DNA of 64,000 nucleotides from Oscillospiraceae bacterium (GCA_015063985.1 SVTC01000008.1:8324-72323), one strand, 5' to 3'. Positions 302-61,268 are shown, counted from the stretch's first letter. A program made the numbers and translations. The notes: a model not told the origin generated them from the letters alone.

Positions 302-500
302 AATCTTCTCCTTGAAAATTTTAAGATTTTCAGTTCTTACTCTTGAGTTATACTGTAGGCGACTGATAATACAAGAGAAAGAACCACTTACGGAAGTATT
401 ATACAACACCTTGATAATAAAGTCAACACCGATTTAAAAAATATCTTAATGAAAATTTACCCTTCTTGTGCAAAATCGACAATATAAATAATTGCTATAT

Positions 501-535
501 ATACAAAACAAACAAAGGGCTTTTCAGCCCCTTGT
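501..535 (-). terminator. rho-independent terminator after the 537-1238 gene
   Basis: Hairpin ACAAAGGGC/GCCCCTTGT (512-535) directly after the stop, followed on the minus strand by TTGTTTTGT. Confidence 0.55.
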
Positions 536-536
536 T

Positions 537-1238: not shown

Positions 1239-1244
1239 GCTTCT

Positions 1245-3404: not shown

Positions 3405-3468
3405 CGTCTTACTCCTTTCATTTTTTGACATTGTACCACATATTGGCTTAAAAATCAAGAACAGACTT

Positions 3469-3945: not shown

Positions 3946-4020
3946 GAAAATCTCCTCCCTATTGCCCGTATATGATAATTATATGGCCTATGGCGTTTTT
4001 TTGCAACGAACAAAAAATGG

Positions 4021-4050
4021 AAAAGAAAAAGGGTCACCGTCCGGTGACCC
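4021..4050 (-). terminator. rho-independent terminator after the 4063-5829 gene
   Basis: Perfect hairpin GGGTCACCG-TC-CGGTGACCC (4031-4050) followed on the minus strand by TTTTTCTTTT. Confidence 0.7.
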
Positions 4051-4062
4051 TGAATATGACGT

Positions 4063-5829
4063 TTATTTTCCTTCTGCCTTAAGAGCAGCCTCGTTGGAGG
4101 AAGCTATAACGCTTTCAAGCACGGAGTAGTAGACCTCGTTGCTCTCCTTGTAGTTCTCAAGGTTAGCCTCGTCAAATATTCTGTATCCGAACTGAGCGGA
4201 CTTGACGTTGCTGAGCTTGGAGGAGGTCATATAGTAATCGTTGTAGAAGCAAAGTGCGGTTGCGGGGCAGATCTCTGCAAACTTCTTTTCAAGATCAATA
4301 AGGATCTTAGCTCTGTCGCCTCTGTTAAGCTTTTCAAGAACGGAATCAACAAGTGCATCGTAGTCTGCGTTCTCGATATTGGTAACGTGGGGAGTGTAGC
4401 CGACAGAATCATCTGCAACTGATACGACGTTGCCGCTGTATCTGGTTGCGAAGGGTGCAAGGTAGGAATATGCGCTGGTGGTAAGACCCTGATAGTCAAG
4501 ACCGATAACGTCGAAATCACCGGTGTAAAGAGCGGTAACGTACTCGTCTCTTGCAAGACCCTTAAGAGTTACCTTGAAGCCGAGGGACTCCCAAATGCCC
4601 TTTGCATACTCTGCAACAGCCTTATCGTAATCTCTGTCGCTGCGATAGGTAAGGGTGAAGCTTCCGCCCTTAACGCCTGCGGAGGAAAGAAGGCTCTTAG
4701 CGCCGCTCGCATCTGCTGTGGTGCTGTAAATATCGCCTGCCTCGTCACGGAAGGACTTACCCATAGAGCTTCCGTATACACCGTGGGTAACAAAGCCCGT
4801 AGCAGCCTCTGCGCCTCTGCCGATGATCTTTGCGATCTCGTTACGGTCAAGAGCAAGGCTCAGTGCCTGTCTGACCTTTGCATCGTCGAGGACCTCGTTT
4901 GCGCAATCAAAGAAATATGTGTAAGAGGACAAAAGCTCCTGAGTGGTGAGCTTATCCTTATAGGATTCGTAATTCTCCTTGGAGAGCTCTGCGATATAAT
5001 GGAGCTCGCCGTTGTTGAAGAGCTCAAGCTGCTCTGCAAGATCGTAGCTGTAATCGGTAAGCAGACGGAAGGGCTTGATGTGCTTCATATAGCCTTCCTC
5101 GAAGGTGTTCTGTCCGAGGTAGTAGCTGTTCATCTCAAGTCTGTAAAGACCGCCGTTTACTCTGCCCTTAAGAGCGAAGGGGCCGTTTGTCAGCATATCG
5201 TCCGCACCCTTGGATGCCCAGGTATCAACCTTATCCGCAACACCTGCAACGTCATCTCTGACGGCAACGAGAGAGGGACTTGCGATAGCCTCGAGGAAAA
5301 GCTCGGAATCGATGGGCTTCTCAAACTCGATCTCAAGAAGAGTCTGGCTTACTGCGGCAATACCAACGTTGTCGATAGTAACGTCGCCGGCCTTTGCTGC
5401 CTTAGCATTCTTAACGTCGAAAAGAAGTGCTGCGGCGGGTGAATTGGTCTCGGGAGAAAGGATCCTCTTCCATGCCCAAGCATAGTGGTCTGCGGAAAGA
5501 GCACGACCGTCGTTCCACTTTGAGGTGTCAAGTCTTATAAAGAGCTTATACTCCTGTCTGTCTTCATCGTAATCGGTCCACCACTCGGATGCCATAGCCT
5601 TATCAATGCTTCCGCTTGTGGATATCTCGGTAAGACCCTCAAACATAACTCCTGCATACTTTATGTAATCCTTGTCATAGATCATGGGAGCGGGATCAAG
5701 ATTTGCGGGCTCGCTTGCAAGATACATTTTGATAACGGCGCCCTTGTCCTCAAGGTCGACCGCACAGCCGAAAAGGGTGCAGCACATTGTCGCCATCACC
5801 AAAAACAATGCAATAATTTTCTTCTTCAT
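4063..5829 (-). CDS. ABC transporter substrate-binding lipoprotein, family 5 (peptide/nickel/oligosaccharide type)
   Basis: MKKKIIALFLVMATMCCTLFGCAV is a lipobox signal peptide. About 590 aa with the general family-5 SBP look. Start taken at the MKKK Met (5829) rather than the track start. Confidence 0.8.
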   Translation of the reverse strand: MKKKIIALFLVMATMCCTLFGCAVDLEDKGAVIKMYLASEPANLDPAPMIYDKDYIKYAGVMFEGLTEISTSGSIDKAMASEWWTDYDEDRQEYKLFIRLDTSKWNDGRALSADHYAWAWKRILSPETNSPAAALLFDVKNAKAAKAGDVTIDNVGIAAVSQTLLEIEFEKPIDSELFLEAIASPSLVAVRDDVAGVADKVDTWASKGADDMLTNGPFALKGRVNGGLYRLEMNSYYLGQNTFEEGYMKHIKPFRLLTDYSYDLAEQLELFNNGELHYIAELSKENYESYKDKLTTQELLSSYTYFFDCANEVLDDAKVRQALSLALDRNEIAKIIGRGAEAATGFVTHGVYGSSMGKSFRDEAGDIYSTTADASGAKSLLSSAGVKGGSFTLTYRSDRDYDKAVAEYAKGIWESLGFKVTLKGLARDEYVTALYTGDFDVIGLDYQGLTTSAYSYLAPFATRYSGNVVSVADDSVGYTPHVTNIENADYDALVDSVLEKLNRGDRAKILIDLEKKFAEICPATALCFYNDYYMTSSKLSNVKSAQFGYRIFDEANLENYKESNEVYYSVLESVIASSNEAALKAEGK

Positions 5830-5981
5830 GAAAAACTTCCTCCTATGTAAATGCCGCGTACGTCGCCCTAAGGCGACCCATAACATCATTATTATACCAC
5901 CAAATCAAGTATTTTACAATTAAAAAAATTAACAACTCGAAAATTCTTCCAATTGCACAACAAACGCAGTCATTTATTGTG

Positions 5982-6773
5982 CTAAATGCCCAAAATTTCA
6001 GGAAAAACCACTTCTCCGCAAGCTCCAAAAGAGCTTTTTATCACAGTAATATCACTATCTGCGGCATTTATAGCCTCACAAAACATATCAAGACAAAGTA
6101 TTTCGCTTGAATAATGGGAGACCTCTATCACGTTCAGACCGCTCTGAGTGCAGTCAAGCACCAGGTTGTAGGAAAGATCGCCGGATAAAAACGTATCGCA
6201 GCCCTCCTTTTGCGCCAGTGGCAAAAACTCCTTGCCGCCGCCGCAAACGCACATAAGCCTTTTGGCTGTGTCACTGCCCTTGAAAAGCTTAACGGGCTGT
6301 CCCAGGGCGGAAGCTGCGATCAAAGCCGCCTCCTCGGCACTGCAATCCTCCAGCGTGCCTATCCTTCCCAGAGGAAGACCCTCCTCGGGGTCAAGCACGT
6401 CCGTGACGTTTTCAAGACCTATAGCGGCGGCAAATCTATCGTTAAGACCGCCTCTTGCACAATCCGCACGGGTGTGAAAGCTGAAGACGGCAATATTATT
6501 TTCGCAAAGTGCCTTCACTCTTCTGCCGAAAAGACCGTCGCCGTCAATGCTTTTTACACCCCTGAAAATAAAGGGGTGATGACTGACGATAAGATCACAA
6601 CCCTCATCGCAGGCAGCTCGAACAGCCTCGTCGGTAACGTCAAGACACACAAGAGCCTTTTTTACCTCTTTATCCCAATCAAGGCAAAGCATCGCACCGT
6701 CGTTGTCCCAGGAGCAGGAAAGCTCCTTGGGATAGCTTTGACACAGTGCCTCATATAATTTCCTTCGGTTCAT
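5982..6773 (-). CDS. Nif3-like dinuclear metal centre protein (YqfO family)
   Basis: LIVSHHPFIF, FSFHTRAD and the C-terminal H..SE motif. Overlaps and follows trmK, as in the conserved yqfN-yqfO pair. Confidence 0.85.
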   Translation of the reverse strand: MNRRKLYEALCQSYPKELSCSWDNDGAMLCLDWDKEVKKALVCLDVTDEAVRAACDEGCDLIVSHHPFIFRGVKSIDGDGLFGRRVKALCENNIAVFSFHTRADCARGGLNDRFAAAIGLENVTDVLDPEEGLPLGRIGTLEDCSAEEAALIAASALGQPVKLFKGSDTAKRLMCVCGGGKEFLPLAQKEGCDTFLSGDLSYNLVLDCTQSGLNVIEVSHYSSEILCLDMFCEAINAADSDITVIKSSFGACGEVVFPEILGI

Positions 6774-7458
6774 AATCCTTACCCTCCAGGATATCTTTTA
6801 TTTCCCCGTAAAGGGCACGTTTTTTTGATGCAACGCCACCCGAGATCTCCATCCCCCTTATCTCCTTTTCGAGTCGGGAGGATAAAAAAACAAGACACTC
6901 CCTCCAAAGAGGCTCTCTTCGCGAAAGCACCTCTCTGCCGGCAAAGTATTCAAGCTCGGGAAGAGTCCTTTTCACACCGGAGTAAGCAGCCTTCATCACA
7001 ACAAACAGCCTTTTATGCTCCCACACCAAAATATCGCGGGTGATCTCAAAGCCGTTCTCCCACAAAAATTTTCTCAGGTGAGGCGCCTTTGTCATAGGCT
7101 GGAAAACAAAGCTTTTCCCCAAAAGGCTGCCGTCGGGCTCGCAAAGCATACCCGAAACGGTCTCTCCGCCCATTCCCGCAACCACAAAGCAATCGGGAGA
7201 ATATTTTAAAAGCGGTCTTATACCGTCCGCCAACACAAAATCCGCACGGTGGCAAAGTCCGCTATCCTTAAAAGTCTCTTTTCCTCTTTGCAGAGGAAGA
7301 GGATTGATATCGCTCACAACGACCCTTGGCGCAATTCCCTTTTGCAAAAGATAAAGAGAAAGAGCGGCGTGATCGGCACCAACGTCAGCGGTAACAGCCC
7401 CCTTCGGTACCAATTCCGCCGCCGCCAAAAGTCTTTTGGACAAAACTTCCTCTTTCAT
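6751..7458 (-). CDS. trmK: tRNA (adenine22-N1)-methyltransferase
   Basis: SKRLLAAAELVPKG..ADVGADHA.L..YL, SDINP.PL and VVAGMGGE motifs typical of TrmK. Paired with Nif3. Confidence 0.85.
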   Translation of the reverse strand: MKEEVLSKRLLAAAELVPKGAVTADVGADHAALSLYLLQKGIAPRVVVSDINPLPLQRGKETFKDSGLCHRADFVLADGIRPLLKYSPDCFVVAGMGGETVSGMLCEPDGSLLGKSFVFQPMTKAPHLRKFLWENGFEITRDILVWEHKRLFVVMKAAYSGVKRTLPELEYFAGREVLSRREPLWRECLVFLSSRLEKEIRGMEISGGVASKKRALYGEIKDILEGKDYEPKEII

Positions 7459-7462
7459 AATA

Positions 7463-7666
7463 TTACTTCGCGGATGCGAAATAATCGTTGAGCTTCTTTA
7501 CCAGCTCATCCGCATCGGTTCCGTGAACCAGGCAAGCATCCTCTACGCACTCTCCTCTTGAAGCGGGGCAACCGAGGCAATGCATACCGATCTCAAGAAA
7601 GAATCTTCCGGTTTCGGGATCTGCATCCAGAATATCACCGATAATGCTTTTCTTTGTAACGACCAT
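7463..7666 (-). CDS. DUF1858-type small redox/hybrid-cluster-associated domain protein
   Basis: 67 aa. TIGDIL..DPET..FFLE.GMHCLGCP....E..EDAC..HG.D is the DUF1858 signature. Confidence 0.7.
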   Translation of the reverse strand: MVVTKKSIIGDILDADPETGRFFLEIGMHCLGCPASRGECVEDACLVHGTDADELVKKLNDYFASAK

Positions 7667-7669
7667 TTT

Positions 7670-10267
7670 TTAACTCCTTTCGATTTTATTCTTTCCCGTC
7701 CTATCCTGCTTAAAGGCAAACAATCCCACCAAAGCGGAAAGTGCCGCACCGCACAGAGCACAGACGAGAGCTATAATAACCGTGACAAGGTCAGGTATAG
7801 CTTTTATATTATTATTTACAGAGGGCATTATTACAACCAAAAAGATAATGGCTGCAATCCCAACTGCCGATCCGACGCCGTCCCACAGATTAAAAACAGG
7901 CTTCACCGTTGAAGCTTTAAGAGAAAATCTGACAAAAAACGCCGAAGCAAAAAGACAGATCACCGCACAGCTCTGAGAGAGACCGGGGATCGACGTATAA
8001 TAAAACACGGTCCTGTATGCTATAAGCGTGGCAAGGCTGCAAAGCACGGCGCAGCATGCCGCCACCCCTCCGCAAAGCAAATAGCTTTTCCTTTTTAAGC
8101 AAGCTCCGCCCTGCACCGGAGGTTGAGCGGCTATGGAAAGCACCGCACACTCCCCAAGACAGAGTCCGAAAAGGATCAAGGCACAGGGACTTACCACCGT
8201 GGTGCCGAAAAAGCCCAGAGAAAAGAAGGTGAGAACCGCTATAAGAGCCTGAATAAACACACTGTAAACAAGCATGCTTTCAATATTTTTTCTTATAGCC
8301 CCCGCCGCCTTCACAGAGGCGTAAACACCCTCAAAGCCGCGCTCGGAAAGCAAAACGTCCGCATTATGTCTTACGCAGATGCTTTTCGATCCCGCGTAGG
8401 CAAAGCTTACGTCTGCCTCCGACTGAGCTATGGATGAATCAAGAGAATCGGTAACCGATGCGGTAACGTCACCCGAGGAGTTTCTCAATCTCACCAGATC
8501 CCGCTGATTGGCAGGATCAAGACCGCAGAACACCTTATATTTATCAAGATCTGCGATAAAAAGACCTCTGTCGACCTTATTATACTCCGCATCGTCCATT
8601 GCAAACTGCTTATCCCCCGGTCCGATCATCCCAAGTCCCTTGGCAAGACCAAAGCCCGAATGCTTACTGTCGGAGGTTATAAGCAATACGTCTATACCGT
8701 CCTTAACGCAACGGTTGACCGCCTCCGCGGCCGCCGCTCTGACCGGGGTATATACCCCCACAAAGCCCAAAAAGGTCATATTCTGCAGGCAGGCGGGAAA
8801 TTCCTTTGCCAGGGCATCGCTAACGTCCAGCACCGCAAGAGCGGTAACGTATTCGCCTCCCACGGCTATTCCTCTTGCGGTATCCATAAGCCTGAGCTTT
8901 TGGGTCTCGTTGATAAATACGGTCTCCCGCTCCTTTTTCAGATAACCGCACCTGGGAATAACGCTCTCGGGACTTCCCTTCACTATAAATCTGCAACTGT
9001 TGTTACGGGAGCAAAGCACAGCCGAGAAGCCGATCTTAGGATCGTAATCATATCTTGTGAAAACACCCAGCGCCTTCTCGCTTCGCTTCTGCTTCAGTCC
9101 AAGACTCCTGCAGGCGTTTATTATGGCGGGATCCACCGCTCTTCTGTTCCAGGTGGGAGAGGTCTTGGTGCAGCAGACCATCATATATTCCAGAAGCTCA
9201 CGGGAATATTTGGGTCTGTCGGAAAATTGATATGGGCAATCGTCTACAAGGTAGCTTCCCACGACGGGATTCTTTTCAAGCATAAAGCTATCGGAATGGA
9301 CGCTTATGCAATTAACGGAGGAAAGCTTATCTATAGCCGCATAGTTTTTCAGTATCACTCCCCTTTTCATAAGGGATGACACCTGCATGGCAACGCAAAG
9401 CTCGCTTAAAAGTCTCACGCTCTCCGGCATTGCGGCGATCACCGGCACCAGAGCGTAATAGAACATATCGAAAATATTCTTTCCAGCCAGAACTCCCACC
9501 GCAAATATAAGAAAGCAAGCCGGGATCCAGATGAGGCTTAAATATTTCCCCAGCCTTTTCGCAACGGAATGGACCGCCGGCATCTGCCCCTGAGAGCGCT
9601 TTACGTTTGAATTAACGGAGTCGAAAAGATTCTTGCCCGTGTTACAAACAAGCACCGTAGCACTCCCGCTGAGAACCACCGTTCCCGCAAAAAGAATGCA
9701 ATCAAAATAGGGGTGCTTTTGCTCGCATACCTCGTGATAGTCGCGCTTTATAACGGCTTCGCACTTTCCCGTTACGTTTGCCTCCAGGACCTTGAGATAG
9801 CGCTTTTTCATAATAATTCCGTCGCAGGGGATTATTTCTCCCCTCTCAAGGAAAAGAGTATCTCCCGGTACCACTCGAGAGGAATCCAGAGGGCAGAATT
9901 TTCCGTCTCTCTTTACCCTGCTCTTCACCTGAGAAAAGCTTTTCACCTTGTCGAGGACCTTGTCAACATAAAGGCTGACCCCCACCGTGAAGATGAGGTA
10001 TCCGCACACGGTAACAAAAAGGCTTGCGGTTATATCCGCATCGGGATATGCGATTGCAACGTATAAGCTTATAAGAACAAATATCCAAAAAATGGCATCC
10101 GAAAACACCCTTTTGAAAAAACGGAAGGGCTTTTTCAGCTTTCCCGAGTAAACGTTTGGCCCGAATTCCTTAAGATTGCGCGCAGCCTGCTGAGAGCTTA
10201 ATCCGATCTCATCGTCGGCTCCGAGAACGCTTTTAAGTCTTTCGGGATCAACTTCAAGCAAATTCAT
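7670..10267 (-). CDS. P-type ATPase homologue with degenerate catalytic motifs (probably not a phospho-enzyme pump)
   Basis: Cation_ATPase_N-like GLSSQQAARNLKEFGPNV, PGD..L..GE.IPCDG, KGSPES and 8-10 TM segments identify the family. TGES is TGKCE. DKTGT is HSDSFM. TGD is TSD. GDGVND is TDSLDS. The ORF is intact at 865 aa. Its ATG overlaps the Clp stop (ATGA at 10267-10264). Confidence 0.8.
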   Translation of the reverse strand: MNLLEVDPERLKSVLGADDEIGLSSQQAARNLKEFGPNVYSGKLKKPFRFFKRVFSDAIFWIFVLISLYVAIAYPDADITASLFVTVCGYLIFTVGVSLYVDKVLDKVKSFSQVKSRVKRDGKFCPLDSSRVVPGDTLFLERGEIIPCDGIIMKKRYLKVLEANVTGKCEAVIKRDYHEVCEQKHPYFDCILFAGTVVLSGSATVLVCNTGKNLFDSVNSNVKRSQGQMPAVHSVAKRLGKYLSLIWIPACFLIFAVGVLAGKNIFDMFYYALVPVIAAMPESVRLLSELCVAMQVSSLMKRGVILKNYAAIDKLSSVNCISVHSDSFMLEKNPVVGSYLVDDCPYQFSDRPKYSRELLEYMMVCCTKTSPTWNRRAVDPAIINACRSLGLKQKRSEKALGVFTRYDYDPKIGFSAVLCSRNNSCRFIVKGSPESVIPRCGYLKKERETVFINETQKLRLMDTARGIAVGGEYVTALAVLDVSDALAKEFPACLQNMTFLGFVGVYTPVRAAAAEAVNRCVKDGIDVLLITSDSKHSGFGLAKGLGMIGPGDKQFAMDDAEYNKVDRGLFIADLDKYKVFCGLDPANQRDLVRLRNSSGDVTASVTDSLDSSIAQSEADVSFAYAGSKSICVRHNADVLLSERGFEGVYASVKAAGAIRKNIESMLVYSVFIQALIAVLTFFSLGFFGTTVVSPCALILFGLCLGECAVLSIAAQPPVQGGACLKRKSYLLCGGVAACCAVLCSLATLIAYRTVFYYTSIPGLSQSCAVICLFASAFFVRFSLKASTVKPVFNLWDGVGSAVGIAAIIFLVVIMPSVNNNIKAIPDLVTVIIALVCALCGAALSALVGLFAFKQDRTGKNKIERS

Positions 10268-50768: not shown

Positions 50769-51302
50769 TCAGGCCTCAAGCTGCTTTGCCAAAAATGCCG
50801 CCGCGGTCTGGACAAGCTTTATTTCCAGGTCGGTGGGCTCGCCTTCCCCATCCGTCACACTCAGTACGGCGCCTATTATATCTCCGTCAAGGAGTATGGG
50901 CATAAGGACGCTTACGTAGCTTCCCGCCTTACCCAGATCTATAAGCGCCTGACCGCTTCTGTGGCAAAAGAGCTGTCTTCGTTCTATAAGCCGCTCCAGC
51001 TCCTGAGGCAGCTTCTGATCCACAAACTCCTTTTTCGATATTCCCGCGCAGGCGATTATGCTGTCTCTGTCGCATACCGCCACGTTCAGACCGCAGCTTT
51101 TGTTCAAGGTGTCGCAGTATCCCGATGCAAAGTTAAAAAGCTCCCCTATGGGCGAATACTTTTTAAATATCACTTCCCCATCGTGATCGGTAAATATTTC
51201 CAGCGGGTCGCCCTCTCTTATCCTCATCGTGCGACGAATTTCTTTGGGGATAACGACTCTGCCGAGGTCGTCTATACGTCTTACTATTCCAGTTGCTTTC
51301 AT
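50769..51302 (-). CDS. spoVT: stage V sporulation protein T (AbrB-type N-domain + GAF-like C-domain)
   Basis: MKATGIVRRIDDLGRVVIPKEIRRTMRIREGDPLEIF is the canonical SpoVT/AbrB swapped-hairpin N-terminus. At 177 aa the length matches SpoVT. Confidence 0.9.
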   Translation of the reverse strand: MKATGIVRRIDDLGRVVIPKEIRRTMRIREGDPLEIFTDHDGEVIFKKYSPIGELFNFASGYCDTLNKSCGLNVAVCDRDSIIACAGISKKEFVDQKLPQELERLIERRQLFCHRSGQALIDLGKAGSYVSVLMPILLDGDIIGAVLSVTDGEGEPTDLEIKLVQTAAAFLAKQLEA

Positions 51303-51367
51303 ATATACATTTCTCCTTAAATTACAAATTGTGTTGTTATTATCTGTAATTTGAGGGGATTTATACT
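51292..51367. repeat. left direct repeat: first 11 nt of spoVT plus its upstream region
   Basis: GTTGCTTTCAT-ATATACATTTCTCCTT-aaatta-CAAATTGTGTTGTTATTATCTGTAATTTGAGGGGATTTATACT recurs at 54029-54164. The 43-nt 3' part differs at one base. Confidence 0.85.
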
Positions 51368-53604: not shown

Positions 53605-53667
53605 CTGAATCTATCCCCCTTTGTTTATAATATTATATCATATTCTAACACATAAAACAAGCGAGGC

Positions 53668-53853
53668 TCAACACCTCGCTTGTTCTTTATATCGTTTCAA
53701 AATACTATGTACTGCAATCGCAAACTTTTCTTCCAGTGTCAATGTTGTATGAGAGGGGGCTCCTTCTCTTATCCGCATCGTGCGGCGAATTTCTTTGGGG
53801 ATAACAACACGACCAAGGTCGTCTATTCTACGAACAATTCCAGTTGCTTTCAT
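53668..53853 (-). pseudogene. 5' fragment of a second, diverged spoVT/abrB-type gene fused to unrelated sequence
   Basis: The first 30 codons (MKATGIVRRIDDLGRVVIPKEIRRTMRIREG) match SpoVT exactly at protein level. At DNA level 53762-53853 vs 51211-51302 shows 14 mismatches in 92 nt by hand count. In-frame homology then ends, leaving a 61-aa ORF too short for a complete AbrB fold. Confidence 0.6.
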
Positions 53854-53919
53854 AAATATATTGACTCCTCTTTCTTTAATTTAATGAATAATGAAAAATG
53901 AATGATGAATATTGGAATA

Positions 53920-54026
53920 ATTAATGTGTCGGCACAGCCGACAATATTTATATCGTGCCGAAGGCACACCGAAATTATTCACTATTCACTATTCATTATT
54001 CACTCGCAAGGCTCCGCCTTGCGCCC
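53920..54026. repeat. string of small GC hairpins in AT-rich context plus a TTCACTA-type tandem repeat
   Basis: GTCGGCACAGCCGAC, GTGCCGAAGGCAC and GCAAGGCTCCGCCTTGC separated by AATATTTATATC and ATTATTCACTATTCACTATTCATTATTCACT. Confidence 0.7.
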
Positions 54027-54028
54027 CT

Positions 54029-54164
54029 GTTGCTTTCATATATAAATTCTCCTTTGTTGATTTTGTAGGGGCGGCAATCTGCCGCACGCGGGAGGCTGAT
54101 AGCCTCCCCTACGAAAAATTTCAAATTGTGTTGTTATTATCTGTAATTTGAGGAGATTTATACT
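54029..54164. repeat. right direct repeat (spoVT 5' stub + upstream region), interrupted by a 66-bp palindromic insertion
   Basis: GTTGCTTTCAT-ATATAAATTCTCCTT, then the insertion at 54055-54120, then CAAATTGTGTTGTTATTATCTGTAATTTGAGGAGATTTATACT. The insertion holds nested hairpins GTAGGGG[CGGCAatcTGCCG]cacgc[GGGAGGCTgatAGCCTCCC]CTAC. Confidence 0.85.
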
Positions 54165-54171
54165 GCGTGAA

Positions 54172-54200
54172 TTTACTTTTTGAATTGGTTGTGATATAAT
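54172..54200 (+). promoter_or_regulatory. putative sigma-A-type promoter for the 117-aa gene
   Basis: TTTACT, 17 nt spacer, then TGaTATAAT (extended -10) about 30 nt upstream of ATG 54230. The same elements occur at the same spacing at 60388-60416. Confidence 0.45.
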
Positions 54201-54229
54201 AAATAAAAATAATCGATAGGAGGTATTTT

Positions 54230-54583
54230 ATGGCAGATCCGATTATAGAAGAATTAGAAAGTTTCAATGCATTTAGAGTTGATGCTTATTGCGAAGGTTA
54301 TCCGGATGTGATTTTTGAAATCATTTTGGATGTCCAACCGACACAAGAACAAATCACAACTGCCGTTAGTGCTTTGGAACAGTTTGTAAGCCAATATAAC
54401 AAACGCCATTTTTTGAAACCTATTCATTATGTTTCTGATGTTGATAGCTTACCCGACGGCGATCACCCAAGAGGGATATACATACATGTTGATTTTGGTA
54501 ACAGCTCTCCCACTGCTCTAATTGCTGCAGTTGAAGCTTTAGAAAAAACGAAACTGCCTATTTTTAGAGTTGCCTTACAATAA
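54230..54583 (+). CDS. 117-aa acidic cytoplasmic protein, hypothetical
   Basis: AGGAGG RBS 7 nt upstream. AT-rich. No recognisable family. Confidence 0.6.
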   Translation: MADPIIEELESFNAFRVDAYCEGYPDVIFEIILDVQPTQEQITTAVSALEQFVSQYNKRHFLKPIHYVSDVDSLPDGDHPRGIYIHVDFGNSSPTALIAAVEALEKTKLPIFRVALQ

Positions 54584-54607
54584 ATTCATCTGTAAATACA
54601 TAACAAC

Positions 54608-54653
54608 GAGGCTGAGTCAAAAGCAAAATTTTCGCTTTTGACTCAGCCTCTTT
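54608..54653 (+). terminator. strong rho-independent terminator; copy 1 of an identical 46-bp repeat
   Basis: GAGGCTGAGTCAAAAGC-aaaattttc-GCTTTTGACTCAGCCTC-TTT. The 17-bp stem is perfect and a T-run follows. Identical to 61223-61268. Confidence 0.8.
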
Positions 54654-54684
54654 TTTGAGACTTATTGACTCAGCGCCTATGAAT

Positions 54685-55494
54685 TTATTTGACGTTATAG
54701 CGCTCAACTATTTTTTTGACATAGTCACGTGGGGATGTTCCCATACGGCGTTTGAATGCGTAGCTGAAATAGGATTGCGATGAAAATCCGCACTCATAGG
54801 CTATCTGTGTAAGTGTCATATCGGTAGAGATCAGTAGATTGACAGATTTTTTGATTCGTTGATCTTCCACATATTCGTGCAGCGTTTTTCCCGTGGAGGC
54901 TTTGAAAAGCTTGTGAAAATATATCGTGTTGAAATTCGCCGCACTTGCCAGCTTTTCAAGTGTAAGCTCTGCAGACAGATTATTGTTGATATATTCAAGT
55001 GCGCGCTCTATTGTTTTGCGATTGTTGCTTTTCGGAGTGAATTTTACGACAGAGGCAGAGTTTTCACTTAATATATATATGAGTTTAAGTATTAAGCTTT
55101 GAAGAAAGATATCATCGTTTGAAATTCCCGTATTATAGTGTTCACATAGCGATATAAATATCTCTTTTATCTGATCTGTATCTAAAAAATCAATATAGTT
55201 CGGGAGATTAGTAAGAACGTCTCCAAGATACCCATCGTTTACGATCATATGAATATAATAACACTTAAACGGCAAACGGGTATGTCGGATCTGTCCGGGC
55301 TTTGCGCAGATGACCATATTCTCAGTTATCGGATGAGATTCATCATTGATATATGACATTCCTCCGCTTCCAATGGGAAGCTCGAGCTCAAACATTGAAG
55401 TTTTTCGGTTTTTTGATATCGTTCGATTTTTGATTGCAATTTGGGCGTTGTATATTCCGATTGCAACGATCTGCGGTAAAATAGTTTCTTTCAT
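54685..55494 (-). CDS. AraC family transcriptional regulator
   Basis: C-terminal double HTH (LTLEKLA...NFN..YF.KLFK..TG.T...Y....R..K...LL..T....T.IA...GF.S.SYF...FKR..G.SP..Y). N-terminal cupin-like sensor. Confidence 0.9.
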   Translation of the reverse strand: MKETILPQIVAIGIYNAQIAIKNRTISKNRKTSMFELELPIGSGGMSYINDESHPITENMVICAKPGQIRHTRLPFKCYYIHMIVNDGYLGDVLTNLPNYIDFLDTDQIKEIFISLCEHYNTGISNDDIFLQSLILKLIYILSENSASVVKFTPKSNNRKTIERALEYINNNLSAELTLEKLASAANFNTIYFHKLFKASTGKTLHEYVEDQRIKKSVNLLISTDMTLTQIAYECGFSSQSYFSYAFKRRMGTSPRDYVKKIVERYNVK

Positions 55495-55617
55495 AGCACT
55501 CCAATAATAGCAAGATATCTAATAAATGCGGAAATAAATATATATTTTTCTGACAAGATCTATTATATAATAAAATAAAAAAGATATCAATAGAAACGGT
55601 AATAAAAAGAGGTTTAT

Positions 55618-56301
55618 ATGAAAATAACATGGCTTGGTCAGGCCGGATTGCTTTTTTACAACGGAAAAGTAAAAATAATGGTGGATCCATATTTATCAAA
55701 CAGTGTGGAAAAAGCAGAGCCTAAAATTTTTCGTCGCGTTCCCGTAAAGGAGGAGCTCTTTAATATCGAGCCTGATTTTATGGTGTTTACACACGATCAT
55801 CTTGATCATTACGATCCCGAAACAGCTCCAAGATTCCTTTGCGAAGGAAGAAATCCCATGACTGTATTGAGCCCTACCTCGGTATGGAAAAAGGCGAGAG
55901 TTTGCGGTGGCGGTCACAATTACGTACTTTTTGACAGAGGCAGTGAGTGGACGGATAAGGGGATTCATTTCACTGCGGTAAGGGCGGTACATAGCGATGC
56001 CTACGCTATTGGAGTTATAATTGAGGATCTTACTGAAAATAAGGTATATTACGTAACGGGTGATACTCTCTATAACCGAGAGATTTTTTCGGATCTTCCC
56101 GAAAGCATAGACGTTATATTTCTTCCTATAAACGGAGTGGGTAATAATATGAACGCAACCGACGCGGTGAGATTTTTCAAGGACAGCGGCGCAAAACGGG
56201 CGGTTCCTTATCACGTAGGTATGTTTGACAGCAAAACCGCTGATATTTTTGATGATGAGAATAAAATAATTTTGGAAGTATATAAAGAAAGTGAGCTGTG
56301 A
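55618..56301 (+). CDS. MBL-fold metallo-hydrolase (possible lactonase, UlaG-like small form)
   Basis: MKITWLGQAGLL......I.VDPYLS and THDHLDHYD zinc motif. 227 aa. Confidence 0.75.
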   Translation: MKITWLGQAGLLFYNGKVKIMVDPYLSNSVEKAEPKIFRRVPVKEELFNIEPDFMVFTHDHLDHYDPETAPRFLCEGRNPMTVLSPTSVWKKARVCGGGHNYVLFDRGSEWTDKGIHFTAVRAVHSDAYAIGVIIEDLTENKVYYVTGDTLYNREIFSDLPESIDVIFLPINGVGNNMNATDAVRFFKDSGAKRAVPYHVGMFDSKTADIFDDENKIILEVYKESEL

Positions 56302-56304
56302 GCG

Positions 56305-57465
56305 ATGAAAGTAACAGATATCAAGACCTTTGTAGTCGATTGCTTCAGAACTAACTGGGTATTCGTAAAAGTATACACCGATGAGGGTATTACGGGCGTG
56401 GGAGAAGGAACGCTCGAATACAAGGAAAAAGCACTTGTGGGGGCTGTGGAGCACATCAAGAGCTATCTTGTGGGCAAGGACCCCCGACAGATCGAAAAGC
56501 ATTATCACGATATTTACCGTGACGCCTATTGGCGCGGCGGTGCGGTGTTGATGAGCGCGCTCTCCGCTGTGGAAACGGCTCTGTGGGATATTCTCGGAAA
56601 ATCCTTGAACGTCCCTGTTTATCAGCTTCTCGGAGGTAAGGTCAATGAGGACTGTCGCATATACGTAAACGGTTGGTTTGCGGGAGCTAAATACCCCGAG
56701 GAGTTTGGCGAGAAGGCGAAAGAGGCGGTCAAACGGGGTGTGACCGCTATGAAATGGGATCCCTTTGGCAAGAATTATTTGCAGATCTCAAACAAGGAGC
56801 TTGACAAGGCTCTGCGTTGCATTGCCGCAGTTCGCGAGGCGGTCGGTGACGAGGTTGACCTGTTGATCGAAGCGCACGGACGCTTTGACGTGCCCACCGG
56901 AATCAAGATAGCGCAAGAGGTGGCGCAGTTCAAGCCGATGTTCCTGGAAGAACCGGTACCGCCTGACAATTTGGAGGCACTTGAAGCCGTAAGAGCAAAA
57001 TCCCCCGTCGCGATATCCGCGGGAGAGAGACTTTATACAAGATTTGATTATAACGAGCTCTTCCGCCGCCGCGCTTGCGATTACATTCAGCCGGATATTT
57101 CCCATGCGGGCGGCATTATGGAGCTTAAGAAGATAGCCGCTATTGCAGAGGCAAATTACATACCTTTCGCCCCTCATAATCCCTCGGGTCCCATTGCAAA
57201 TGCCGCAACGCTTCAGCTTGCCGCTTGCTGCCCGAGCTTCTGCATACTTGAGATCATGTACAGTGACGTGGATTGGCGCAAGGATGTGACAGATGAAAAT
57301 CTTGTTTACGAAAACGGTCGCATTAAGATAGGAGACAGACCGGGACTTGGTATAGAGCTTAACGAAGAGGCTTGCCTTGAGCATCCTTACGTCGAGCATA
57401 ATCTTCGACACTACACAGGGGCGCTTACCGATATAAGGCCTGCGAAAACAGAATTTTATTTTTAA
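56305..57465 (+). CDS. enolase-superfamily dehydratase (mandelate racemase / D-galactonate dehydratase family)
   Basis: I....V.........VKV.TDEGI.G.GE, A.WDI.GK....PVYQLLGG and the metal ligands D...E...E context (LIEAHGRF, LEEP, QPD.SH.GG). Confidence 0.9.
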   Translation: MKVTDIKTFVVDCFRTNWVFVKVYTDEGITGVGEGTLEYKEKALVGAVEHIKSYLVGKDPRQIEKHYHDIYRDAYWRGGAVLMSALSAVETALWDILGKSLNVPVYQLLGGKVNEDCRIYVNGWFAGAKYPEEFGEKAKEAVKRGVTAMKWDPFGKNYLQISNKELDKALRCIAAVREAVGDEVDLLIEAHGRFDVPTGIKIAQEVAQFKPMFLEEPVPPDNLEALEAVRAKSPVAISAGERLYTRFDYNELFRRRACDYIQPDISHAGGIMELKKIAAIAEANYIPFAPHNPSGPIANAATLQLAACCPSFCILEIMYSDVDWRKDVTDENLVYENGRIKIGDRPGLGIELNEEACLEHPYVEHNLRHYTGALTDIRPAKTEFYF

Positions 57466-57485
57466 AAGATCGGAGCATTGCCATT

Positions 57486-59516
57486 ATGAAGGTCAAATTA
57501 ACACGTCACTTAGGGCGGTTGAAAGTAAATATAGACGATAAGCTTTATGAGCCCTTGTCCTTTAAATCCTTTCGCCCTAACCCAAGAAACGTTTCTGAAT
57601 TTTACAGTGCGGGAGTGCGACTGTTCAGCGTACTGACGACAGGATTGACCTCTGCCATAGGTGTTCCTTATTCACTGTACGGAGAATCGTGGATCGGTGA
57701 CGGACAATACGATTTCAGCGCGATCGACAGACAGATGGATATGTTTTTGGAAAATGCACCCGATGCCTATTTTGCTCCTATGATACAGGTGGATACGAGG
57801 GATTGGTATCTAAAAGCTCATCCGGACAAGCCAAATTCATTTACGCATCTTTCTCAAATTGCCCACGATGAACAATGGCGGCTTGCTGCCGCCGAGTATA
57901 TGAAGGCGGCGATCCGTCATTGTGAAGAAAAATACGGGGAATGTATTTACGGCTATTTTCTTTTGGGCGGAACGACGACAGAGTGGTTCTCGAACGGAGA
58001 TAAAGAAGCAAGCCACCCTATAAAAGAGGCAGGATATCGAAAGTGGACAGGTGACGATAGCGCCCATCTGCCCTCTCTTGAACGCTTGAATCGCGAGGGC
58101 AACGTATTCCTTTGCTCAGACGAGTCCGACGTATATAACGCAAGACGCTTTCATGCCCAAACGATATCCGAGCTTATTTTATACTTCGCCAAAGAGGCGC
58201 AGTCTGTGCTTAAACATAAAAAGCTACTGGGAGTTTATTACGGATATTTGTTTGAGCTTGGCACAGAGCGTCTTTATAACGACGGAAGCTTGGATTATGA
58301 ACGAGTATTTTTCAGTCGTGATATTGATATGATATCCAGTCCGTCTTCATACGGATACAGAAAAACAGACGACCCAAGTGCCTTTATGGTAACACACAGG
58401 ACGCTTGACGATCACGATAAGTTGTATTTTCTTGAATTTGACCATATTACCCACACAGCCCCCGAGCAGATACTGGACGGTTTGGACTTAACTGCATCTA
58501 ACAGAAGTATCGTAAAGATACCGGGAAGCAAAAGCAGGTGTAAAAACGAGACCGAGACTCTGAATTTGATGTATCGTGATTTTATTCTTTGCAACGCAAA
58601 CCGAGCGGCACTTTGGTGGTTTGATATGTTTGATGGATGGTTTCGTTCGGACGGCATGATGGCAGCCGTCAGCCATATGCTTAAGATTTCAAAATTACTG
58701 GGAGCTATCGAAACGAAAAGCGTTTCCGATATTGCGGTCATTGCAGAGGGCGAGTCTATGTATCGGGCAAGAAAATCTGCACGACTTGCTACGGAATGTC
58801 TTTCCAATATTCGTCGTACTTTGGCAGAGTGTGGATGCGCTTACGACTTGTATTCTATCGGAGATTGCGGTGAGGCACTTTTGCGTCCGTATAAATTGTA
58901 CGTATTTGTAAATCAATATGACTTGCCGGACACTGATGCTATTCATAAACGGTTGCGCAACTCCGGTAAAAGTGTGCTTTGGCTTTATGCACCTGCATAT
59001 GCTACATCCGGAGAGCTCAGCGTGTCTGCCATACAAAAAGCCACAGGGCTTTGTGTGACCGAACAGTCTGCATCAAATGGCGGAATGGTTTATGAGGACC
59101 GTTTGATCGATTACGGATTAAATGCGCCGTATTTTGCGGTTGAAGATCCGTGTGCCGTACCGCTTGCTTATTTTGAGAACGGTGCGGTTGCCGTAGCATC
59201 TAAACAATTAGCGGGTTATCGCTCGGTTTACGCATCTACCTGCAATCTCCCATCGGGACTTCTCCGACAAATTGCCGCCAAGGCGGGTGTGTTTGTATAC
59301 AGTGATAACAACTTCGTCTATGTTTATCCTAACTCTGCTTCTGTTGGTGTATACAATGCCACCGATGAGGACGCGGTTATTCATTTGCCTGAAGATGGGG
59401 TATATACAGATATGATAGAGGGTGGAAAGTACACATGTAAGGATGGCAATTTGTTGCTTACGAAAAAAAAGATTCGTTCTTATTTACTAATCAGGGAGAA
59501 AAGAAAAGGCTTATGA
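57486..59516 (+). CDS. 676-aa cytoplasmic protein, possibly a GH42-like glycoside hydrolase architecture (uncertain)
   Basis: No signal peptide. The N-terminal about 400 aa looks TIM-barrel-like. The middle DIAVIAEGESMY... segment resembles the GH42 trimerisation (flavodoxin-like) domain. The call is weak and made by eye. Confidence 0.35.
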   Translation: MKVKLTRHLGRLKVNIDDKLYEPLSFKSFRPNPRNVSEFYSAGVRLFSVLTTGLTSAIGVPYSLYGESWIGDGQYDFSAIDRQMDMFLENAPDAYFAPMIQVDTRDWYLKAHPDKPNSFTHLSQIAHDEQWRLAAAEYMKAAIRHCEEKYGECIYGYFLLGGTTTEWFSNGDKEASHPIKEAGYRKWTGDDSAHLPSLERLNREGNVFLCSDESDVYNARRFHAQTISELILYFAKEAQSVLKHKKLLGVYYGYLFELGTERLYNDGSLDYERVFFSRDIDMISSPSSYGYRKTDDPSAFMVTHRTLDDHDKLYFLEFDHITHTAPEQILDGLDLTASNRSIVKIPGSKSRCKNETETLNLMYRDFILCNANRAALWWFDMFDGWFRSDGMMAAVSHMLKISKLLGAIETKSVSDIAVIAEGESMYRARKSARLATECLSNIRRTLAECGCAYDLYSIGDCGEALLRPYKLYVFVNQYDLPDTDAIHKRLRNSGKSVLWLYAPAYATSGELSVSAIQKATGLCVTEQSASNGGMVYEDRLIDYGLNAPYFAVEDPCAVPLAYFENGAVAVASKQLAGYRSVYASTCNLPSGLLRQIAAKAGVFVYSDNNFVYVYPNSASVGVYNATDEDAVIHLPEDGVYTDMIEGGKYTCKDGNLLLTKKKIRSYLLIREKRKGL

Positions 59517-60292
59517 AAACTGCACTGATTACCGGTGCTTGTATAAATACAGGCGTTGCGATTGTTGAAAAATTCGCGTCCGAGGGCTACAACGTGATAT
59601 TTACTGGCAGGAGCATAGAAAAGGTTCATGCCGCAAAAAAAGCGTACAGAGAAAAATTTCCGGAGGTACAAATTATCGGGTATAATATAGACTCGCTTCT
59701 CGACGAGAGGACAGTTGACGAGGAGTCTGTGGAGAAAACGTTTTCGGATATTGACGCAAAAGGACTTCTTGTTGACACCTTGGTTCTCAATGCTGCCGAT
59801 CAGGGTCTTGGACAAAAGATATTTGAAAATCCTCTTACCGATTTTATGAAGGTCATCAACACAAACGTGGTATGGAACTACTGCCTTTGCGAGCACGCCG
59901 CAAAGCGAATGAAAGAAAACGGCGGCGGAAATATAGTGTTTGTTAATTCAAATACCGCATACCGCGCTATTCCCGACAGAATCGCATATGAAGCATCAAA
60001 AGGCGGTCAGCTTGGCATGATGCGAGGACTTGCCCTCGATCTGGGAAAATACAATATTCGAGTAAACGCAGTTCTTCCCGGAATGATAAAAACAGACCGT
60101 TGGGATAAGGATCCTGAGTTCTACGCAAAGGTTCCTTCGCGTTTTACTCCCATCGGAGACGTAGCCGTAGGTGAGGACGTAGCCGATGCAGTATGGTATT
60201 TTGCCGCACACGCCCGTAACACCACAGGCGCAGAGCTTGTTGTCGACGGAGGCAATACCATTCAGCTATATCCCGTTATACCAAAGACATAA
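59513..60292 (+). CDS. SDR family oxidoreductase
   Basis: ALITGA...G.A cofactor motif, NAA, and the catalytic YEASKGG (YxxxK). Confidence 0.9.
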   Translation: MKTALITGACINTGVAIVEKFASEGYNVIFTGRSIEKVHAAKKAYREKFPEVQIIGYNIDSLLDERTVDEESVEKTFSDIDAKGLLVDTLVLNAADQGLGQKIFENPLTDFMKVINTNVVWNYCLCEHAAKRMKENGGGNIVFVNSNTAYRAIPDRIAYEASKGGQLGMMRGLALDLGKYNIRVNAVLPGMIKTDRWDKDPEFYAKVPSRFTPIGDVAVGEDVADAVWYFAAHARNTTGAELVVDGGNTIQLYPVIPKT

Positions 60293-60299
60293 ATTGTAC

Positions 60300-60338
60300 A
60301 GAAGGCGGCAGATCTTTGACCTGCCGCCTTCTGTTTTC
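60300..60338 (+). terminator. terminator after the SDR gene
   Basis: AGAAGGCGGCAG-atctttgac-CTGCCGCCTTCT followed by GTTTTC. Confidence 0.65.
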
Positions 60339-60387
60339 AAATCGTGATACTATTATTTGTGATGAAAGGGTATTTATACTGTCCAAC

Positions 60388-60416
60388 TTTACTTTTTTGA
60401 GCAACTATGGTATAAT
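60388..60416 (+). promoter_or_regulatory. putative sigma-A-type promoter for the DUF4375-like gene
   Basis: TTTACT, 17 nt spacer, then TGgTATAAT (extended -10). It lies within an 81-bp segment (60336-60416) that aligns without gaps to 54120-54200 at 56/81 identities by hand count. Confidence 0.45.
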
Positions 60417-60444
60417 TATCAAAAATTATTCGAGGGGCATAAAT

Positions 60445-61215
60445 ATGAATAAATTTTATACATTTTTTGCTAATTTCTTTCTAACTGCATTTCGTCACAT
60501 AGGGTCTATTGTAATTTCTATAATCCTGATTGTAGTAGGTGCAATATGGTCTAAAGTTTGTTTTTACATAGGTTTGTTTTTAATTATCTCAAATATAATC
60601 GTTGCTTTTGTCGGTGCAATTCGTATGCAAAATATTATGAATTATCGTTCTGATGATGACCCCGAATTCAATGAAATGATGGAAAAAATAACTGCCGATC
60701 CAAAATCTTTTTTATCCGAGATAATGGAGGCGCAAGAAAAAAACAGACATTTACATGGCGAAGATTTATTATCCCTTTCGGATGACGATTTATTTGAAAC
60801 TATCTATTTTCAAAACATCGATATTGCAGAAGCAGCTGAAGATGAGGATAAAGAATTAGAACAATTTACAGGTGCTCGCAAAACAGTTTATGTTTTGGGC
60901 TTATTTGATTCAGAAATTCAAAATGGTGGTCTTTGCCAATTTTTTGTAAACTCATCAAGAGTTGTTGCACCGTATGTTAGTGAATCGCTAAGATGCGTGG
61001 GTGCAGATGAACATCTGAATCTTTTTGAGGAATTTATTACTGCAAACAATATTGATGTTTCTGATCTCGAATCTTTTAAAGTTTTCAGTAAGCGCGGATA
61101 CATAAAACAAACTAAGAGGTTTGACTTTGATTCATTTGATGATAAATATTATGAATTGCCTGCATTACAAGAAAAAGTAGTTAAATACATCAAAAATAAT
61201 ATAAACGAGTTTTAA
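60445..61215 (+). CDS. membrane-anchored DUF4375 / DMP19-like domain protein
   Basis: Two N-terminal TM helices. The C-terminal region with VLGLFDSEIQNGGLCQFFVNSS matches the DMP19 (DNA-mimic) C-terminal domain signature ..EV.NGG..QFF.NS. AT-rich. Start at ATG 60445. Confidence 0.65.
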   Translation: MNKFYTFFANFFLTAFRHIGSIVISIILIVVGAIWSKVCFYIGLFLIISNIIVAFVGAIRMQNIMNYRSDDDPEFNEMMEKITADPKSFLSEIMEAQEKNRHLHGEDLLSLSDDDLFETIYFQNIDIAEAAEDEDKELEQFTGARKTVYVLGLFDSEIQNGGLCQFFVNSSRVVAPYVSESLRCVGADEHLNLFEEFITANNIDVSDLESFKVFSKRGYIKQTKRFDFDSFDDKYYELPALQEKVVKYIKNNINEF

Positions 61216-61222
61216 CTAAAAG

Positions 61223-61268
61223 GAGGCTGAGTCAAAAGCAAAATTTTCGCTTTTGACTCAGCCTCTTT
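61223..61268 (+). terminator. strong rho-independent terminator; copy 2 of the identical 46-bp repeat
   Basis: Same 46 nt as 54608-54653. Confidence 0.8.

Follow-up and report, generated by a model that had tools for sequence, protein, structure and literature searches.

Sporulation genes can be interrupted by intervening elements, as in the case of skin in sigK and SPbeta in spsM. To our knowledge, almost no integron-like cassette arrays are known from Firmicutes. Tandem islands specific for ssrA, with the serine recombinase DsiB, have been described in Dehalococcoides (PMC3146451), and the rAID-1 clusters of Bacteroidales consist of small genes of low GC content, arrayed with repetitive sequences between them, and were called “reminiscent of integrons” (bioRxiv 10.1101/471110). 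Here we describe the region around the sporulation gene spoVT in a 64,000-nt stretch of DNA from an Oscillospiraceae bacterium (GCA_015063985.1 SVTC01000008.1:8324-72323; hereafter the window). An earlier note on this DNA had pointed to two unrelated small AT-rich genes, encoding an acidic 117-aa protein and a 256-aa DMP19/DUF4375 protein with a hydrophobic N-terminus, as the contents of two cassette slots. Both genes are as the note had described them. Judged from sequence comparison with other genomes, they are probably two cassettes of a widespread and apparently undescribed array located at spoVT in gut and rumen Clostridia.

Frames derived from the spoVT 5′ end

The segments upstream of the 117-aa gene (54120–54200) and of the DMP19 gene (60336–60416) align without gaps with 56 identities in 81 positions; random pairs of 81-mers from the window gave a mean of 20.4 with an SD of 4.1. 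Both contain TTTACT-17-TATAAT preceded by TG (54172–54200 and 60388–60416), and a promoter scan ranked the two sites second and fourth among the promoter-like sites of the region. This module, with TTTACT-17 nt-TGnTATAAT at the same spacing, is exactly as previously noted, and the partial copy reported upstream of spoVT is also real. Specifically, 51319–51367 is 96% identical to 54116–54164 and 71% identical to 60332–60380. It corresponds to the block designated D7 and lacks the TTTACT/TATAAT half. The module is, as predicted from these alignments, the divergent intergenic region of spoVT, which consists of its ribosome-binding site (RBS), D7 and an outward promoter in back-to-back orientation. 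On the spoVT strand D7 reads GTATAA-N15-17-(CA)GATAATA, and its likeness to sigma-F/G promoters suggests a forespore-type spoVT promoter. In Bacillus, spoVT is transcribed by the forespore sigma factors F and G.

An alignment of about 29 module copies from about 20 independent contigs showed the invariant blocks GTTGCTTTCAT, TCTCCTT, TATTATCTGTAA, GATTTATACTG, TTTACTTTTT and TGnTATAAT. Variability begins right 3′ of the −10 box. Every cassette has its own TTTACT-17-TATAAT, and leader and RBS come with the individual cargo gene. In nearly all copies a 5′ end of spoVT, either complete or truncated, lies directly next to the module. The possibility that the module is confined to the two places first noted is contradicted by these contigs, in which the cargo differs.

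The repeat unit is a frame of ~300 bp in which the terminator is followed by a tail, a spoVT 5′ fragment, the RBS, D7 and the promoter. In type-A frames, spoVT breaks at REGDP| (codon 33–35) and the tail of ~70 nt contains CATACAACATTGACAC, while in type-B frames the break is at codon 11–13 and the tail is ~110 nt long. The truncated type-A fragments share this one breakpoint and a conserved tail, which is followed by a hairpin, and the ~60-aa open reading frame (ORF) formed by fragment and tail falls into more than 120 protein clusters at ≥80% identity. Within a few bases of the cargo stop codons lies the conserved hairpin AAAGCGAGGTGAAnTTCACCTCGCTTT, then the tail and then the spoVT fragment. 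This canonical hairpin was found at cargo 3′ ends in loci L014, L022, L024, L026, L029, L032, L035, L040 and L045. Its single copy in the window stands exactly at the type-A frame, and it is therefore neither a general terminator nor a genome-wide repeat. No Rfam match near threshold was found for the module, the hairpin or the type-B tail.

In the window, spoVT is an intact ORF with both of its Pfam domains (Table 1). A 107-nt copy of its 5′ end (53756–53862) is 83% identical in nucleotides to 51205–51311, and the CATACAACATTGACAC in the adjoining tail resembles the P′ half-site of a large-serine-recombinase attP. In the module alignment, the homology of frame 1 ends at 51367, after GATTTATACT. 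The junction right after GATTTATACT(G) recurs before inverted cargo, namely at 51367|51368 in the window (477-aa and 251-aa genes), in L014 (DUF3878) and in L045 (GCE_fung). An intact spoVT accompanied by boundary repeats of its own end, as accretion would leave behind, is present in the window (repeats of 33 and 4–5 codons), L019, L027, L032, L035, L036, L038, L040 and L045.

A scan of metagenome contigs with ATTTATACTGNNNRAMTTTACTTTTT gave 13 loci. The 5′ end of spoVT lay on the opposite strand in all of them, directly upstream of the module in 12 and only beyond the cargo in L020; it was full length in four and truncated in nine. The ORF 3′ of the module differed from locus to locus, examples being Acyl_transf_3, a 265-aa protein, DUF4279, S15 peptidase, a 365-aa protein, TauE and DMP19. 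Further loci were found by inspecting the genomic context of sequences homologous to the 117-aa protein, to the DMP19 protein and to the 61-aa fragment. Arrays of one to at least six cassettes with varied flanking core genes were observed in L014, L022, L032, L035, L036, L038, L040 and L045. The order in L014 is spoVT, DMP19, DUF3878 (inverted) and the 117-aa gene; one to three cassettes stand beside spoVT in L032, L035, L036 and L038, and three are found in L045. The longest row, in L040 (GCA_054279175.1, 7900–16130), has at least six cassettes, each ending in the canonical hairpin, with a 187-aa protein, DMP19, a 283-aa protein with DUF5655, a 228-aa hydrolase, a 604-aa protein and a 374-aa protein as cargo. 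Some of its frames are cut down to hairpin and promoter, an AraC/MBL/MR_MLE cluster adjoins it, and there is no spoVT within 9 kb. Searches of the arrays for tRNA and tmRNA gave no match.

Table 1 Features of the spoVT region and of the two cassettes in the window.
Feature	Position	Strand	Remarks
Intact spoVT, array anchor	50769–51302	−	177 aa; Pfam SpoVT_C 2.4e-34, MazE_antitoxin/AbrB domain 6e-12
Frame 1, spoVT RBS and D7 copy 1 (51319–51367)	51303–51367		Conserved putative spoVT promoter region
Inverted two-gene cargo, 477 aa and 251 aa	51392–53604	−	GC 0.31
Canonical cassette terminator hairpin	53656–53684		AACAAGCGAGG-N7-CCTCGCTTGTT; sole copy in the window
Type-A tail	53685–53755	−	Holds CATACAACATTGACAC at 53736–53751, minus strand; from fragment alignment
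Displaced spoVT 5′ fragment, codons 1–33	53756–53853	−	Part of 61-aa ORF 53668–53853
Third spoVT start stub, 4–5 codons (54027–54039), and RBS remnant	54027–54054	−	cctgttgctttcatatataaattctcctt versus 51290–51318; direct reading
GC-rich 56-nt near-palindrome	54061–54116		Between RBS remnant and D7
Module copy 2	54116–54200	+	D7 (54116–54164) and sigma-A-type promoter TTTACT-17-TGATATAAT (54172–54200)
Cargo 1, acidic 117-aa protein	54230–54583	+
46-nt hairpin copy 1	54608–54653		Putative bidirectional terminator, 117-aa gene/araC
AraC regulator, MBL-fold hydrolase, MR/MLE enolase-family enzyme, 676-aa protein, SDR	54685–60292	− (AraC), + (others)	Metabolic cluster between the two cassettes
Module copy 3	60332–60416	+	D7-like block (60332–60380) and promoter (60388–60416)
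Cargo 2, membrane-anchored DMP19/DUF4375 protein	60445–61215	+	256 aa
46-nt hairpin copy 2	61223–61268		Cassette homology stops at ~61274 (TTTGCT)

The DMP19 cassette of the window is reduced at both edges. On the left it has no spoVT fragment, and the terminator of the SDR gene abuts D7 at ~60336; on the right it has no tail at the point where homology stops. Several irregular frames were also observed. Upstream of the displaced 61-aa fragment, the place of D7 is taken by an element of ~120 bp (53882–54002), in which inverted arms of 27 nt (TGAATAATGAA-type repeats) with 85% complementarity enclose two small GC hairpins and which may be a miniature inverted-repeat insertion. A GC-rich hairpin insert like that at 54061–54116 occupies the same frame position in L038 (~9990–10040). 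The DMP19 promoter of L014 (4950–5050) has either been interrupted or duplicated: after a first TGTGATATAAT come a GC-rich insert of ~95 nt and then a second sequence, CATGGTATAAT, which matches the −10 box in the window.

Terminator hairpins and cargo genes

The two 46-nt hairpins are identical, as previously noted, and the string occurs exactly twice in the window, with no copy expected from shuffled sequences. The common stretch is 49 nt long with one mismatch (54605–54653/61220–61268). The hairpin folds into a perfect 17-bp stem with a 9-nt loop (−31.3 kcal/mol, z = −7.1). It was detected by a terminator scan, both copies lie between convergent genes, and on the plus strand the T-run of an intrinsic terminator follows the GC-rich stem of 17–20 bp (TTTTTT 3′ of copy 1 and TTT 3′ of copy 2). 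By these features it looks like a bidirectional intrinsic terminator. Both hairpins are present in two contigs from different samples (L004 and L005). The sequence of the window is identical to a Joint Genome Institute metagenome contig, and the same structure in a second sample indicates that the pair is not an assembly artefact.

Comparison with the DMP19 cassette of L029, which is 96.5% identical in nucleotide sequence, places the 46-nt form among the cassette terminators. The L029 cassette ends in the canonical hairpin taactaaaagCGAGGTGAATTTCACCTCGcttttgct, whereas the one in the window ends in taactaaaagGAGGCTGAGTC...GACTCAGCCTCtttgct, i.e. taactaaaagGAGGCTGAGTCAAAAGC-aaaattttc-GCTTTTGACTCAGCCTCtttgct. 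The outer GAGG/CCTC and the flanks are the same, and the inner part is a longer palindrome. The derived hairpin of the 117-aa cassette is also present in a strain at 94% identity (L006) that has no DMP19 cassette. On this alignment, the 46-nt hairpin represents a variant of the cassette terminator that is specific to this lineage and in which the inner stem and loop are predicted to have been swapped for the longer palindrome. The identity of the two copies is accordingly best read as recent intragenomic copying or conversion and not as a property of the cassette family: the 5′ modules, at 69% identity, are putative old paralogues, and it is the 3′ hairpins that were apparently homogenised locally. 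The idea of conserved identical ends thus holds in so far as module and terminator frame the cargo, but only the hairpin is identical locally, and orthologous DMP19 cassettes carry a different terminator.

A ubiquitous terminator repeat without relation to the cargo, which the earlier note had kept as a possibility for the hairpin, was rejected. Apart from the two copies in the window, the same stem was found in just three GTDB species genomes, with one copy per stretch examined. Plasmid and phage collections gave no match to the 46-nt hairpin; a gapped hairpin pattern gave none in metagenome and viral collections, a collection that evidently does not include the source samples. Single hairpins in three other Clostridia metagenome-assembled genomes (L001:5409–5448, L002:1716–1754 and L003:1716–1754) share an inner stem of 13–15 nt, (G)GCTGAGTCAAAAGC, with loops and outer stems that differ from those of the 46-nt hairpin; L002 also has a hairpin of the canonical GCGAGG type 1.2 kb away. 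In the window, TTGACTCAGC recurs (cttattgactcagcgcc) 3′ of hairpin copy 1 at 54654–54684, beside the araC stop codon, and cttattgactcagcgcc is a partial extra copy of the right arm of the 46-nt hairpin.

At least 17 unrelated cargo families follow the module in other genomes and metagenomes, including acyltransferases, S15 peptidase, TauE, a deacetylase, ADP-ribosylglycohydrolase, DUF4279, DMP19 and many unassigned proteins. This breadth bears out the notion of cassette slots, but the two slots of the window are not recent duplicates of each other, since module copy 3 shares 91.5% identity with the L029 module and 69% with copy 2. The GC content is 0.31–0.38 in the cassettes and 0.46 in the window. 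The 117-aa protein (isoelectric point 4.56) has no Pfam, NCBIfam, PADLOC or PHROG match and has 146 homologues, which form a conserved family without a Pfam match. Structure prediction, as the earlier note had proposed, gave a confident AlphaFold2 model (pLDDT 90) of a generic ferredoxin-like alpha+beta fold, but no PDB match at E < 1e-3. The DMP19 protein, with its ATG at 60445, matches Pfam DMP19/DUF4375 (PF14300) over residues 140–252 (E = 5.7e-20, 72.4 bits, cut-off 25); its hydrophobic N-terminus covers ~60 residues, and it has 424 homologues. The 477-aa and 251-aa proteins of the inverted cargo have no PADLOC or Pfam match and correspond to PHROGs of no assigned function (phrog_34504, 1e-35, and phrog_23933, 4e-24). 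In its C-terminal third, the 477-aa protein also has a match to a domain of phage HNH/homing-endonuclease families.

A role of the cargo, which is heterogeneous, in immunity or anti-defence is speculative. The cargo gave no defence-related matches in PADLOC or NCBIfam, sequence searches of the PDB were empty, and the literature searched held no support for DMP19 as an immunity protein. Some of the cargo genes (DMP19, DUF4279, ADP-ribosylglycohydrolase and LRR) could be orphan immunity genes.

Proposed acquisition of cassettes and competing explanations

A candidate origin of the type-A boundary is provided by locus L015 (ENA ERZ27297573 k141_517670, 403–7871), in which spoVT is split by an element of ~7 kb. 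A 739-aa large serine recombinase ORF continues in frame into SpoVT_C at REGDPLEIY, and a 58-aa N-terminal spoVT fragment is located ~7 kb away, beside the 117-aa gene. The element also encodes a REP_ORF2-G2P rolling-circle Rep, a hexapeptide acetyltransferase and a SnoaL protein. As read from its gene content, this is a skin-like intervening element in a putatively forespore-expressed gene, and such a split was found in L015 only. It marks spoVT as a target of serine-recombinase intervening elements, for which no description was found in the literature searched: nothing relevant was returned for spoVT in connection with recombinases, intervening elements, islands or hotspots. The attP rebuilt by joining both junctions has inverted arms (GATGTAAGTGTTGTA - cgggaaggagacccctca - TATACAACATTTACATC), and the second arm, TATACAACATTTACATC, matches the type-A tail motif CATACAACATTGACAC with a spacing that differs by 2 nt. 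The arrangement of an attL, a target half-site joined at the core to an inverted-repeat P′ half-site, is present in L015. Besides L015, attL-like junctions (10 junctions) occur in nine independent loci, which are the window and eight others. An attR-like junction was found only in L015.

Taken together, we consider it fairly likely that the locus is part of an array in which small gene cassettes have accumulated by accretion at the 5′ end of spoVT and whose frames are now exchanged by recombination. The manner of acquisition is inferred as follows. Foreign DNA would integrate at the highly conserved start of the AbrB-domain coding sequence of spoVT. The incoming DNA would supply a replacement 5′ end and promoter, so that the gene stays intact and the resident 5′ end is pushed outward. 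With the 5′ end as the target, incoming DNA must bring a promoter, an RBS and the first codons, which would explain both the long repeat and the outward displacement of the older ends. Repeated integration would yield a tandem array, in which each frame would consist, in order, of a GC-rich bidirectional terminator, the tail, the displaced spoVT 5′ fragment, the RBS, D7 and the promoter TTTACTTTTT-17-TGnTATAAT; this last element would drive a single cargo gene with its own leader and RBS. Type-A boundaries may be fossil attL sites of large-serine-recombinase elements. As the arrays have neither recombinases nor attR, present exchange, loss and shuffling of cassettes would mainly, and most simply, proceed by RecA-type homologous recombination between the ~300-bp frames, either by Campbell-type insertion of looped-out circles or by allelic replacement after DNA transfer.

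Several observations weigh against this account. The arrays contain attL-type junctions and never attR, and classical serine-integrase chemistry alone cannot yield an intact spoVT together with attL. No recombinase gene was found in the window, either by tblastn with the L015 recombinase or among Pfam matches of the ORFs at 45–64 kb; the tblastn search matched only L015 among the loci examined. Likewise, there was none within 8–10 kb of the arrays in nine of 10 long loci, and none was found for the type-B breakpoint. Viral contigs held no free attP and no module, and contig look-ups gave no excised circle or empty site. The DMP19 cassette of the window has no spoVT fragment and lies 9 kb from spoVT, and some cassettes (L041 and L043) have no spoVT within 5–9 kb; units therefore also exist at, or move to, places away from the anchor. 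Finally, the promoter assignments in the module derive from consensus matches only.

An active integron-like system is a rather improbable alternative, but it would account for the very regular layout, in which the variable part is strictly leader and ORF between the constant promoter and the terminator with its tail. In such a system, a recombinase acting in trans (a serine enzyme like that of L015, or another) would join a cassette site made of the spoVT 5′ fragment and tail to the intact spoVT. Each integration would remake an intact spoVT and a new fragment-plus-tail site, and single-gene cassettes would be captured and excised at the spoVT-proximal end. Breakpoints that are identical in many genomes and a recombinase half-site conserved in the tail fit this proposal, and serine-recombinase islands that share one target-gene arm in tandem offer a precedent (Dehalococcoides ssrA islands, PMC3146451). 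However, no recombinase is linked to the arrays and no circular junctions were seen. Formally, the fragment with its tail is an attL, and recombination between attL and attB is not catalysed by classical large serine recombinases. Two breakpoints (types A and B) and degraded frames, as in L040 and in module copy 3 of the window with its missing fragment, also disagree with such a system. Gut and rumen Clostridia of the Oscillospiraceae/Ruminococcus type would then possess an integron-like capture platform with the 5′ coding end of spoVT as attachment site, which we hold to be doubtful. If true, circular single-gene cassettes consisting of promoter, ORF, terminator, recombinase half-site and spoVT 5′ end would be inserted by a recombinase in trans. 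The insertions would remake spoVT and push older cassettes outward, leaving a heritable and ordered record of acquisition, and self-protection functions may be over-represented in the cargo.

A scheme in which one cassette was duplicated locally, the ORF was then replaced and the AraC–SDR cluster later entered between the copies would explain the identical 46-nt hairpins and the homologous 5′ modules. In L014 and L038, the DMP19 cassette and the 117-aa cassette do belong to a single contiguous array close to spoVT. The sequence comparisons nevertheless make this course of events very unlikely. Module copy 3 is orthologous to DMP19 modules elsewhere; the closest of them, that of L029, is attached to a spoVT 5′ end. 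The terminators of the orthologous cassettes differ from the 46-nt form, and a similar AraC/MBL/MR_MLE cluster borders another array (L040). The cluster may be an insertion between two cassette copies, as the earlier note had supposed, but no contig without it was found. Nor was the predicted deletion between the hairpins seen in any of 18 contigs with an identical SpoVT. Instead, L006 keeps AraC-MBL-MR_MLE at 94% identity, is without the DMP19 cassette and has a different right flank: it diverges from 57466 onward, with a GH16 gene in place of the 676-aa gene and an SDR that is 80% identical.

The displaced spoVT ends also speak for import. Over codons 1–31, the two copies in the window differ at 15 of 93 nt, with 12 synonymous-only codons and no non-synonymous one. 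Within-locus copies differ at 15–25 of 93 nt, and the ratios of synonymous-only to non-synonymous codons elsewhere are 17:1, 18:0, 15:1 and 18:1. Such near-purely synonymous divergence indicates that the copies diverged inside functional genes and not by local duplication and decay. Two distal frames of L028 are 94–98% identical to the region upstream of spoVT in the window, whereas the frame at its own spoVT is 74% identical and its SpoVT protein 56%. The identities of the DMP19 module and ORF to their orthologues change in step (91.5/96.5, 80.2/87.8 and 67.9/79.6%, respectively). From these three lines of evidence, frames and cargo appear to travel together between genomes, and the cassettes were probably imported with their frames.

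That the ~60-aa fragments are instead functional small AbrB-type regulators or antitoxins, each forming with divergent cargo a unit that resembles the spoVT 5′ end, is hard to credit: ORF length is conserved in more than 100 clusters, the divergence of codons 1–31 is almost purely synonymous and PHROG antitoxin families match residues 1–33, but the AbrB fold needs ~50 residues and homology ends at residue 33–35, the tails are poorly conserved as protein with variable stops (ORFs of 52 to 73 aa), L027 has frameshifted or insert-bearing copies, type-B frames retain only 11–13 codons, and the stop codon lies within the terminator hairpin, so that ORF length follows from the DNA element.

Comparison with known systems

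More than 100 sequence clusters from metagenomes of gut and rumen show this architecture, in which accessory genes, each equipped with a promoter, are lined up beside a conserved developmental regulator. The spoVT 5′ fragment together with GATTTATACTG...TTTACTTTTT could serve as a handle for mining accessory, possibly protective genes of uncultured Clostridia, and the frame may be a natural portable unit of promoter and terminator. It would also present a testable case in which elements that target the 5′ end of a gene essential for sporulation spare it by means of a replacement start and promoter.

Among the described systems, accretion as in the ssrA islands of Dehalococcoides and in CIME (cis-mobilizable elements) is similar in that serial integration takes place at one end of a conserved single-copy gene that stays intact. 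The ssrA islands further share a direct repeat of the gene end at each boundary, many units without an integrase, and a recombinase ORF that runs into the target gene, as that of L015 does into spoVT. In contrast to these islands, a protein-coding gene, that of a sporulation regulator, is targeted here at its 5′ end, and the repeat includes promoter, RBS and 11–35 codons (~250 bp versus 20 bp). The units are mostly single genes of 0.5–2 kb with a common outward promoter and terminator, and the arrays have no integration module.

The L015 element resembles skin and SPbeta in that it splits a sporulation gene within the coding sequence, in this case by means of a large serine recombinase. In the window, on the other hand, spoVT is intact, only the distal junction (attL) is left, and the cargo is fixed beside the gene. 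As spoVT is a forespore gene, its developmental excision would be heritable.

Integrons have in common with the spoVT array a row of small, mostly single-ORF, low-GC cassettes by a fixed anchor, with a palindromic 3′ boundary and strain-variable cargo. The spoVT array differs from them in the absence of intI and of attI/attC, in the separate promoter of each cassette (integron cassettes are promoterless and read from a single Pc), in boundaries made of host gene fragments and in its clostridial hosts. In particular, no Phage_integrase was found among the ORFs at 45–64 kb of the window or in the Pfam tables of L014, L032, L035, L036, L038, L040, L043 and L045. The 3′ element, unlike attC, is a perfect GC-rich stem with a T-run, followed by a spoVT fragment. 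The rAID-1 clusters are alike in low GC content, repeated intergenic motifs and occurrence in gut bacteria. They have a XerD-like recombinase at the head, which the spoVT array lacks, followed by co-directional ORFs enriched in immunity genes, and belong to another phylum; the spoVT array is anchored at spoVT, and much of its cargo consists of enzymes or membrane proteins. Membership of integrons and of rAID-1 clusters thus fails on the recombinase and att features, and by its sequence organisation the spoVT array would be classed as a tandem integration hotspot with unusually regular, promoter-carrying single-gene cassettes.

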